This document shows, in pieces, positions 29,568-31,931 of a stretch of DNA of 64,000 nucleotides. The notes below the pieces were generated by a model. The model ran no database searches. It was not told where the DNA came from and saw nothing but the letters and a program-made list of their open reading frames with translations. Each line of letters starts with the position of its first letter. Within the stretch, counting starts at the first letter, position 1. The stretch lies in the IMG/VR virus record IMGVR_UViG_3300042866_001263. One strand, given 5' to 3'. Made by a program: the position numbers and the translations under genes. Origin of the DNA: a virus (lineage: Duplodnaviria > Caudoviricetes).

Positions 29568-29849
29568 ATGACAACAATTAAGTACACCATCACTCGAAAG
29601 CATGTCTTTGTTGACAACGAACCAGTGTTGATGTATTATATTGAAAATATGCCATTCGCATTTGATCTTTTAGATCAAGATGAAAAACATGACAAATGGA
29701 TTTTGGCTGAAGCAGCACTAAATCAAGAATATACTATGGAAGATATCTTCCGTTATTCTGACTATCTTATCGCTGAAGAATGCCACCCAGTTTTGTTTGA
29801 ATTGCCCTTAGTTAATCCTGAAGTTTTGCCAGATGAACCAGTTTCTTGA
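29568..29849 (+). CDS. hypothetical protein
   Basis: 93-aa ORF after TAAATA at 29532. Confidence 0.7.
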   Translation: MTTIKYTITRKHVFVDNEPVLMYYIENMPFAFDLLDQDEKHDKWILAEAALNQEYTMEDIFRYSDYLIAEECHPVLFELPLVNPEVLPDEPVS

Positions 29850-30357
29850 ATACCTTGAAGGCACCTTTGCTAACAAACATCAAGCACAGTCTCATCCTAC
29901 TCGTTATGCTCACATTCGTGTAAGTCATCGTCGTATTGGTGAGAAACGGTTTTATGGTGAACAGGCATATAACTATCTTCTAAATAACCCATATCGTCAG
30001 TTTGTAATTGACGTTGAGGTTGAGAAGGGGCAATTTCGTCTCAAAAATTATGAGATTGAAGATCCTAAACGTTTTGCGGAATGTAAAGATCTCGAACTCA
30101 TTACGGACGACATCTTGACATATCGCCAGGGTTGCGATATAATTATTACACAGACTGGACCAGAAATGTTCCAGGGTGGTACATCTACTTGTGAGTGTTG
30201 GGTTGATTGGCAAGGCATAAAAACCTATGTTCAAAATGAAGTCACACTCACAAAAGATGAATACCATGTAGTTGATAAAGGACTACATGCTGAAACCCAC
30301 GAAAAGATTTGGGGTTCCGATTGGGGAGCGTTCAAATTTGTTAGAATGCCCTTGTAG
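29833..30357 (+). CDS. cpeT: T-type phycobiliprotein lyase (CpcT/CpeT family)
   Basis: LEGTFANKHQAQSHP..YAHI, EQAY, PYRQ, GCD, WGS..GAFKF. Confidence 0.85.
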   Translation: MNQFLEYLEGTFANKHQAQSHPTRYAHIRVSHRRIGEKRFYGEQAYNYLLNNPYRQFVIDVEVEKGQFRLKNYEIEDPKRFAECKDLELITDDILTYRQGCDIIITQTGPEMFQGGTSTCECWVDWQGIKTYVQNEVTLTKDEYHVVDKGLHAETHEKIWGSDWGAFKFVRMPL

Positions 30358-30419
30358 CTCAGTGGTAGAGCAGCGGTTTTGTAAACCGCTGGTCGTCTGT
30401 TCGAATCAGATCGGGGGCT
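30348..30419 (+). tRNA. tRNA-Thr(TGT)
   Basis: Cloverleaf; anticodon at 30380-30382. Confidence 0.9.
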
Positions 30420-30587
30420 CTTGAAAGGACTGGAAATATTCGGTTCTTTCTCGAAATCCTAAGTTTTCTTAGGTCGGGGATTTGATCACCCCCGCTCGTA
30501 GGAACCAAAACCTCTCCTTGGTCTTAGTATTCTGTGTCCAAGTGAAGTAAAGAGGGGGGCTTAAGGTGATGCTCCCCCCTCCTACCA
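30420..30587 (+). ncRNA. structured non-tRNA RNA between tRNA-Thr and tRNA-Ala
   Basis: Five or six helices identified by eye; ends in CCA. Confidence 0.5.
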
Positions 30588-30590
30588 TTA

Positions 30591-30663
30591 GGGGAATTAG
30601 CTCAGTTGGTAGAGCACCTGCTTTGCAAGCAGGCTGTCAGGAGTTCGAGTCTCCTATTCTCCA
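30591..30663 (+). tRNA. tRNA-Ala(TGC)
   Basis: GGGGAATTAGCTCAG...; anticodon at 30624-30626. Confidence 0.95.
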
Positions 30664-31163: not shown

Positions 31164-31350
31164 TATAAATATACACACAATGGTGAACATCATGTCTAAC
31201 TTCAGCAAGCAAATTGAGATTAAGATTAGCGATTGCCGCCAGGATATCGCCAAATCCCTCCTGCTTGCTAATATGTAACAATCGATACATAAGCAAGATT
31301 TATCAGGGGGGCAGTTGACAAAACCGCCCCCCTATTTTATTGTAGATACA

Positions 31351-31385
31351 TCGGTGGGGGATCCACCACGGTGGGGGATCCACCA
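31351..31385. repeat. tandem 17/18-bp palindromic repeat
   Basis: CGGTGGGGGATCCACCA followed by CGGTGGGGGATCCCACCA. Confidence 0.85.
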
Positions 31386-31408
31386 GCACCTTGAAAATTT
31401 AATCTCAT

Positions 31409-31556: not shown

Positions 31557-31604
31557 TTGCTACGCTGCCTGTGGAGTGCCCCTCTTTGGCGGTTGTAGCA
31601 TCAA

Positions 31605-31843: not shown

Positions 31844-31845
31844 TA

Positions 31846-31926
31846 GGACTCCAGCAATGTGCTTGCTAGGATATAAAAGACTGACGCCTCCCTCTGCAGA
31901 AAGAGTAACCATCAGGTCAGCGTCCA
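31846..31926 (+). ncRNA. structured ~80-nt spacer RNA between tRNA-Ser and tRNA-Gln
   Basis: GGAC/GTCC closing helix, two internal arms, ends GTCCA. Confidence 0.45.
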
Positions 31927-31931
31927 TGTAA

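Follow-up and report, generated by a model that had tools for sequence, protein, structure and literature searches.

What lies between tRNA-Thr and tRNA-Ala in the tRNA array of this phage, where a spacer of 170 nt (30421-30590) separates two genes that are adjacent in most marine cyanomyoviruses? The stretch of DNA analyzed, called the window here, is 64,000 nt long and comes from a T4-like cyanomyovirus; its 27-34 kb region is approximately 80% identical to Synechococcus phages S-CAM4 and ACG-2014, and near-identical DNA is present in lake and freshwater metagenomes. ARAGORN and Rfam place 14 tRNA genes on the plus strand of the window. In other cyanophages, the slot between tRNA-Thr and tRNA-Ala can hold tRNA-Asp (S-RSM4) or an odd tRNA-like gene (S-PM2 and S-RIM32), and in the records of S-PM2 and S-RIM32, the spacers and the neighboring odd tRNA-like genes are unannotated or lie under spurious ORFs. 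The initial annotation of the window read the spacer as one structured RNA of about 165 nt, closed by a GGTTCT/GGAACC helix and possibly toggling between a CCTCT/AGAGG helix and an 8-bp helix of G and C runs. The genes and sites around the spacer are the following.

29833-30357: cpeT-like ORF, the stop of which overlaps the first bases of tRNA-Thr
30115-30143, plus strand: promoter-like site TTGACA-17-TATAAT (12/12, a consensus match only), within the cpeT-like ORF and about 205 nt upstream of tRNA-Thr
30348-30420, plus strand: tRNA-Thr(UGU), called by ARAGORN, Rfam tRNA score of 67 bits, without an encoded CCA; the first module (core) begins directly 3' of it
30588-30590, plus strand: 3-nt spacer UUA between the second module (module A) and tRNA-Ala
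30591-30663, plus strand: tRNA-Ala(UGC), called by ARAGORN, Rfam tRNA score of 71.6 bits, without an encoded CCA

The spacer contains no credible ORF, as the initial annotation had stated; the ORF list holds only minus-strand ORFs of 39 and 49 amino acids and a GTG ORF that runs through tRNA-Ala. Rfam 15 gave no family match in the spacer at the gathering score, and at an E value of ≤10, the stretch returned just three chance-level matches on the minus strand (mir-1249, PreQ1, and sR43); a match to a described family, which would have told against the initial annotation, was thus not seen. The Rfam tRNA model had no match in 30400-30610 at an E value of ≤10, ARAGORN called no tRNA between 30420 and 30591 and no tmRNA in the window, and tmRNA was also absent from both Rfam searches (gathering score and E value of ≤10). 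In ten related loci, Rfam recognized tRNA, wcaG, and abiF only, and neither the window nor these ten loci had a match at the gathering score to Y RNA/YrlA, ROOL, GOLLD, a small ribozyme, or a riboswitch. CRISPR-repeat mimicry, a CsrA-type GGA sponge, a put-type antitermination RNA, and a K-turn were considered by eye and rejected for want of any defining feature. A survey of cyanophage noncoding RNAs lists CfrI, PhotoRC-II, wcaG, manA, glnA, and abiF and nothing like the core or module A (PMC9964418), and a full-text literature search did not find either of them described. The core and module A are a new pair of RNA families, of a kind (non-tRNA RNAs in phage tRNA operons) that is already known.

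The first of the two, the core, is a series of three hairpins.

30421-30497, plus strand: core module, 77 nt, three hairpins, with a minimum free energy (MFE) fold identical to the comparative fold
30423-30434 with 30439-30450, plus strand: hairpin HP1, 12 bp, with the apex AAUA inside a conserved UGGAAAU
Between HP1 and HP2, plus strand: joiner CGAAAU
30458-30463 with 30468-30473, plus strand: hairpin HP2, CCTAAG-TTTT-CTTAGG, followed by U30474
30475-30479 with 30490-30494, plus strand: hairpin HP3, CGGGG/CCCCG, with the loop AUUUGAUCAC and a near-invariant UUGAUCA
After HP3, plus strand: core 3' tail CUC

The core alone folds at a z score of -2.97. Across 39 aligned, distinct cores, pairing holds in 94.8% of the cells compared to 36 to 64% for slid partners, 8 pairs have changed on both sides, and 0 of 500 shuffles was as good. 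Most of this covariation is borne by HP1, which is paired in 90.6% of the cells and is rich in G-U pairs, one of them being UG in 35 of the 39 sequences. Since so many of its pairs are G-U, HP1 can fold only on the plus strand, which is also the strand of the tRNAs, and selection therefore acts on an RNA. Variation is nearly absent from the base of HP2 and throughout HP3, and because most positions of these two helices never change, they rest on energy and context and not on covariation. The same three hairpins are found 3' of tRNA-Thr in the cultured phage S-PM2, where the first 80 nt of the spacer are 75% identical to the window and HP1 carries two compensatory changes (A-U to U-A and C-G to U-A).

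The loop and joiner sequences of the core are nearly invariant across divergent phages, and the conserved single-stranded parts (the GGAAAU apex of HP1, the AAAU joiner, and the UUGAUCA loop) look like recognition sites. Homologs were retrieved by patterns made from conserved parts, and the conservation of those parts is thus partly built in, a bias that was controlled only in part. When the HP3 loop was left free in the patterns, L155 was the one family member found to differ in this loop, along with three variants that carry other palindromes, and two viral scans of this type yielded 136 new loci and 0 family members. A resemblance of GAUCACCCCC in HP3 to the 3' end of 16S rRNA is not kept in S-PM2 and most homologs and was dismissed as coincidence.

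The second element, module A, folds into a three-way junction.

30498-30587, plus strand: module A, 90-nt three-way junction, consensus fold of 18 distinct sequences
30498-30503 with 30580-30585, plus strand: closing stem P1, GUAGGA/UCCUAC, 7 bp in most homologs
30505-30511, plus strand: invariant junction strand CCAAAAC
30512-30521 with 30538-30554, plus strand: P2/P3 arm, loop UCUUAGUAUUCUGUGU, which includes CCTCT/AGAGG and CTTGG/CCAAG
30554-30560 with 30571-30577, plus strand: P4, 7 bp, loop UUAAGGUGAU
30586-30587, plus strand: free 3' tail CA

Among the 18 distinct sequences, 97.9% of the cells are paired (35 to 44% for slid partners), 10 pairs have changed on both sides, and again 0 of 500 shuffles was as good. 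P1, the P2/P3 arm, and P4 coexist, with 97 to 100% of the cells paired (98.7 to 99.2% for P1), and the consensus fold is also the single-sequence MFE fold in the window and in L012. Positions 1 to 5 of P1 never vary, and there the stem rests on energy and context instead of covariation. The initial annotation was thus right that structured non-tRNA RNA sits inside a phage tRNA operon, and the hairpins that it noted are real and conserved, with compensatory changes in the homologs of both modules and the sought covariation present in 8 pairs of the core and 10 of module A. That the core and module A are real conserved RNA modules is very probable. Pairing of the P3 loop (AUUC) with a bulge (GAAU) as a pseudoknot and kissing between the L3 and L4 loops were rejected, both being lost in variant forms of P3. 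The P4 loop sequence AAGGUGAU, considered as a Shine-Dalgarno sequence, is not kept in S-PM2 and most homologs and was likewise put down to coincidence.

Module A is tRNA-like in topology only: its arm order is that of a D-armless cloverleaf, and the hallmarks of the tRNA family (RF00005) are lacking, the P4 loop UUAAGGUGAU, like the HP3 loop of the core (AUUUGAUCAC), not being a UUCRANY T loop. The acceptor-like stem P1 is conserved as GUAGG.../...CCUAC with 6 to 7 bp, its 3' strand is preceded by one or two nt, and it is followed by a free CA and then by 2 to 4 variable nt. The CCA end noted earlier is real insofar as ...CCUACCA is conserved. However, the first C of this CCA pairs with G1, leaving only CA free, and the end thus does not look like the usual discriminator and CCA. 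Where a downstream tRNA was called (99 loci), ...CCUACCA lies 2 to 4 nt from the next tRNA or odd tRNA-like gene in 85 cases, and this gap is the spacing found between the tRNA genes of these arrays.

All of the complements on which the single-RNA model had been built are present in the sequence, namely, CCTAAG-TTTT-CTTAGG, CGGGG/CCCCG, CTTGG/CCAAG (30517-21 with 30538-42), CCTCT/AGAGG, the helix of the G run and C run, and the final CTACCA (30582-30587). The GGTTCT/GGAACC closing helix is paired in 75.8% of the cells, with its two middle pairs broken in 6 of the 11 homologs that have both the core and module A, and it takes up bases of HP1 (90.6%) and P1 (98.7 to 99.2%), both of which are better supported. 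The whole-spacer fold (-56.9 kcal/mol; z = -2.36) forms HP1 (30423-30434 with 30439-30450) and P1 (GUAGGA with UCCUAC) and does not use GGTTCT/GGAACC. The 8-bp helix of GAGGGGGG with CCCCCCTC is paired in 72.7% of the cells in the same 11 loci, which is no better than slid or shuffled controls, and P4 in its 7-bp family register coexists with P2. The proposed two-state switch thus gains no support from the comparison, and the apparent competition is explained by the G run of the window, which can slip by one register.

The distribution of the modules among phages separates them further. The core pattern (18 nt across the HP2/HP3 junction) is present in at least 119 IMG/VR contigs as well as in S-PM2, and among the matches listed, there are 66 distinct cores, nearly all located 1 to 3 nt past a same-strand tRNA, most often tRNA-Asn(GUU). 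The nrdA/nrdB/gp61 region of one such contig (L013) identifies it as a T4-like cyanomyovirus. The module A pattern is found in 110 IMG/VR contigs. In some contigs, the core alone, at 78 to 80 nt, fills the gap from tRNA-Asn to tRNA-Thr, and elsewhere, it is followed by a pseudoknot-like module, by longer modules, or by module A. The canonical core precedes module A in 35 of 111 loci; the other upstream neighbors of module A are HP1 alone (L366), a plain hairpin (L344), the pseudoknot-like module, and other modules. The exact module A variant of the window recurs in more than 10 contigs with other flanks, and a contig from a freshwater RNA library is identical to 30498-30587 and diverges on both sides. 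This contig and the others from the four metatranscriptome runs, which mainly contain the flanking tRNAs and derive from many organisms, cannot show ends, strand, or expression, and the parts that they leave uncovered carry no weight. Because the modules occur apart and with foreign flanks, the boundary between them can be set at 30497/30498 and the end of module A at A30587. Separate or otherwise combined in related phages, they are two units and not the single RNA of about 165 nt first proposed, and their occurrence apart and beside other modules means that they shuffle independently.

A blastn search of the spacer against 50,697 phage genomes had S-PM2 as its sole match, and a pattern scan of one genome from each of 185,579 prokaryote species gave 27 matches, all but one of them due to chance. 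The exception is a 413-bp contig (L146; NZ_FBWL01000046.1) labeled Clostridium sp. C105KSO13, with an S-PM2-type core that scores 71.6 bits with our covariance model of the core (R1); it is most likely cyanophage DNA contaminating the Clostridium assembly. In 151 cyanobacterial genomes, R1 and the covariance model of module A (R2) had one weak match each, and both were rejected, that of R2 as apparent coding DNA with no tRNA nearby. As far as searched, the family of the core and module A appears to be restricted to phages, and its carriers are T4-like cyanophages, mostly uncultured and from freshwater, plus the marine S-PM2. One locus with a variant of the core (L177) is not recognizably cyanophage by blastn, and the HP2/HP3 motif may therefore reach beyond cyanophages.

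Several other elements were seen in these arrays. The pseudoknot-like module (GCGGAGAGUGUCUUCCGC GAGUGGUGGGCACUCACUACUC) lies 3' of the core in L013, L022, L037, and many others, often between the core and the next tRNA or ahead of module A, and the loop of its first hairpin (AGUGUC) is complementary to that of its second (GGCACU). The odd tRNA-like gene (CCUCUGGUAGUCUAUUGGUAAGGAC...GGUUCGAUUCC...), located at L001:1679-1751 in S-PM2 and L002:1121-1193 in S-RIM32 and after module A in most IMG/VR loci, is conserved, with normal D and T arms and an aberrant anticodon arm. ARAGORN calls it tRNA-???, Leu(CAA), or His(AUG), depending on the phage; it is absent from both GenBank annotations (S-PM2 and S-RIM32), and in L003, the Rfam tRNA model had no match over it. 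In S-PM2, the 47-amino-acid "putative ATPase" S-PM2d250 (L001:1798-1941) overlaps tRNA-Ala and a tRNA-Met and is flagged as probably misannotated in the S-PM2d transcriptome paper (PMC10976474).

Within the window, a second non-tRNA structured unit with a GGAC/GUCC closing stem and two inner arms occupies 31845-31931, between tRNA-Ser and tRNA-Gln; 14-mers from it are common to 12 fetched viral loci, and it probably belongs to the same repertoire as a further conserved module. A 47-nt hairpin (GCUACGCUGCC...GGCGGUUGUAGC) takes up the space from tRNA-Asp to tRNA-Glu (31558-31604) and has a few 14-mers in common with 11 related loci. In 31290-31400, a terminator-like G-rich hairpin (GGGGGGC...GCCCCCC) followed by a U-rich run overlaps a promoter-like site (31315-31343), and after this hairpin come two tandem GGTGGGGGATCCACC hairpins just 5' of tRNA-Lys.

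The best overall explanation, to which we assign a probability of about 0.6, is that the core and module A are separate members of a repertoire of structured RNA modules carried within cyanophage tRNA arrays. The modules would be cotranscribed with the tRNAs, probably from the promoter-like site at 30115-30143, which is a candidate sigma-70-type promoter for a transcript of tRNA-Thr, the modules, and tRNA-Ala. Transcriptome sequencing of S-PM2d noted "very small ORFs ... located within a tRNA operon," probable misannotations, and reads over these ORFs indicate that the operon is transcribed during infection (PMC10976474). The spacer RNA is placed where tRNA-processing enzymes could release it, as with species 1 and 2 of T4. 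RNase Z or RNase E would cut behind the CCA-less tRNA-Thr, RNase P could cut at G30498 through tRNA mimicry by the stacked P1/P4 helices, and RNase P cleavage at G30591, the 5' end of tRNA-Ala, would define where the module A precursor ends on its 3' side. The products would be discrete, small, stable RNAs of about 77 and 90 nt. Module A fails every tRNA sequence test, and its recognition by RNase P is thus an argument from shape only. On balance, we consider that the core and module A are probably released by tRNA processing.

As for their role, near-invariant single-stranded motifs together with cassette-like turnover suggest specific partners and a type of selection that is typical of host interaction loci, which leads us to favor, with low confidence, a function in trans. 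The modules may act by binding a host or phage protein, and, from their shuffling and by analogy, they could tentatively be viewed as decoys or mimics, with module A as a non-decoding tRNA mimic. If so, phage tRNA arrays would be tied to the current work on tRNA-targeting defense systems. A more far-reaching and rather doubtful version is that the tRNA arrays are expression platforms for a shuffling toolkit of effector RNAs, in which module A is a tRNA mimic and the core is self-associating. Module A would then be matured by RNase P and the 3'-end machinery and would titrate or redirect a host factor that reads tRNA acceptor ends, such as a tRNA-targeting defense nuclease or a nucleotidyltransferase, and the core would form a dimer or a larger RNA-only assembly through the palindromic loop of HP3. 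Such a toolkit, if it exists, would be a new class of phage counterdefense or host takeover RNAs delivered by tRNA processing.

The rival that survives best, albeit an unlikely one, is that the hairpins only aid the maturation or stability of the tRNA precursor in cis and are without function once cut off; they might provide an entry or stop site for RNase E or RNase Z, block exonucleases, or insulate the folding of neighboring tRNAs. It would fit with the position of HP1-type hairpins, always 1 to 3 nt past the 3' end of a tRNA, and with the loci in which HP1 alone (L366) or a plain hairpin (L344) is enough to separate a tRNA from module A. The AU-rich single-stranded joiner between stable hairpins would also suit cyanobacterial RNase E, which reportedly prefers AU-rich single-stranded sites of this type. 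However, most tRNAs in the same arrays are 1 to 5 nt apart without any such element, and the window has only one copy. Moreover, loops and a joiner that are near-invariant across divergent phages exceed what a structural spacer needs, and the three-way junction of module A is complex, with junction strands that are conserved.

That the core serves to build an RNA-only assembly, through kissing-loop dimers or homo-oligomers of the HP3 UGAUCA loop, or that a self-cleaving ribozyme cuts the array, is improbable. The HP3 loop holds GAUC in nearly all members (ACUUGAUCA in 41 and AUUUGAUCA in 22, plus minor GAUC variants), and in the divergent cores, this tetramer is replaced by GGCC (L168:7875-7941) or AGCU (L150:3330-3392 and L177:10402-10472), all three tetramers being self-complementary. 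The phage RNAs ROOL and GOLLD build homo-oligomeric cages by kissing loops (bioRxiv 10.1101/2024.12.08.627333), and the manA motif, which is present in cyanophages, forms cages according to a 2026 preprint (10.64898/2026.07.01.735769). On the other hand, there are only three variant loops, for which palindromes would arise by chance at a few percent by a rough estimate, and the 5-nt UAGCU loop is ill-suited to kissing. A conserved pseudoknot was not found, and no known ribozyme family was matched in Rfam. The palindromic loops are at most suggestive of pairing between loops or of a partner that is a dimer.

It is very improbable that the spacer is made up of decayed tRNA genes, another nonfunctional relic, or a site that acts at the DNA level. 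Both modules are about the size of a tRNA and lie within a tRNA array, module A retains the arm order of a cloverleaf, and tRNA-Asp or the odd tRNA-like gene takes the Thr-Ala slot in S-RSM4, S-PM2, and S-RIM32. Against this, purifying selection is indicated by compensatory changes and by loops that are nearly invariant in more than 100 contigs, the modules have no residual tRNA signal at an E value of ≤10, and the G-U pairs rule out double-stranded DNA or a reading of the minus strand. Least tenable of all is the single, switching RNA of about 165 nt: its complements exist in the window and 4 of the 6 closing pairs can form in most homologs with both modules, but its halves lie apart in most loci, its closing helix competes with the better-conserved HP1 and P1 and is missing from the whole-spacer MFE fold, and its 8-bp register, particular to the window, does not outscore the controls.

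Several known systems are comparable to the core and module A. D-armless mitochondrial-type tRNAs and the tRNA-like part of tmRNA have their elements in the same order as module A, with a closing stem of 7 bp, a single strand where the D arm would be, a long arm, a further arm stacked beside the 3' strand, and a short tail at the 3' end. Module A differs from them in having no 7-nt anticodon loop and no T-loop consensus, and its 3' end does not look like a discriminator plus CCA. ROOL and GOLLD resemble the modules as structured phage RNAs that are "often near tRNA islands" (bioRxiv 10.1101/2024.12.08.627333), and self-complementary loops may be a theme that they have in common with the core. 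They are Rfam families of about 580 to 800 nt, unmatched here, whereas the core and module A have 77 and 90 nt. The abiF motif (RF03085), a hairpin of 37 nt with a different sequence and no match in the window, sits immediately next to tRNAs in cyanophage arrays of this kind (L003:35-71 and L032:8093-8129) and has also been reported from cyanophage S-CREM1 (PMC9964418). Its position in related arrays indicates that other kinds of small non-tRNA RNA use the same platform.

The Escherichia coli 3'ETS-leuZ sRNA sponge, the MHV68 TMER hairpins, and the MALAT1 mascRNA are all freed from their precursors by RNase P, RNase Z, or RNase E. They are thus like the predicted fate of the modules in that tRNA processing is the delivery system for other RNAs, although the organisms differ and the sequences are unrelated to those of the window modules, whose release we infer.

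The closest counterpart is T4 itself, the tRNA cluster of which has been known since the 1970s to yield stable non-tRNA RNAs. These RNAs, species 1 and 2, are released along with the tRNAs, and to our knowledge they have never been explained. In the T4 annotation, they (rnaC and rnaD) are small non-tRNA RNA genes that lie on the tRNA strand and abut tRNAs, and the spacer modules are also non-tRNA RNAs inside the tRNA cluster of a T4-like phage and on the tRNA strand. The likeness does not extend to sequence or structure. Neither R1 nor R2 has a match in the T4 rnaC/rnaD locus (L122), and the 3' part of rnaC is a canonical T arm (GGGTTCGAATCCC) with an acceptor strand, in contrast to the window modules, which have no such T loop. 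The cyanophage modules are also shorter than rnaC and rnaD, and they shuffle. At least the core and module A now have alignments, consensus folds, and covariance models that define them well enough to be described as new RNA families, and the presence of the core in the cultured phage S-PM2 (host, Synechococcus WH7803) makes direct experiments possible. The arrays of these abundant aquatic cyanophages hold a much richer version of the T4-type non-tRNA RNAs, in the form of conserved, structured modules with cassette-like swapping between genomes.
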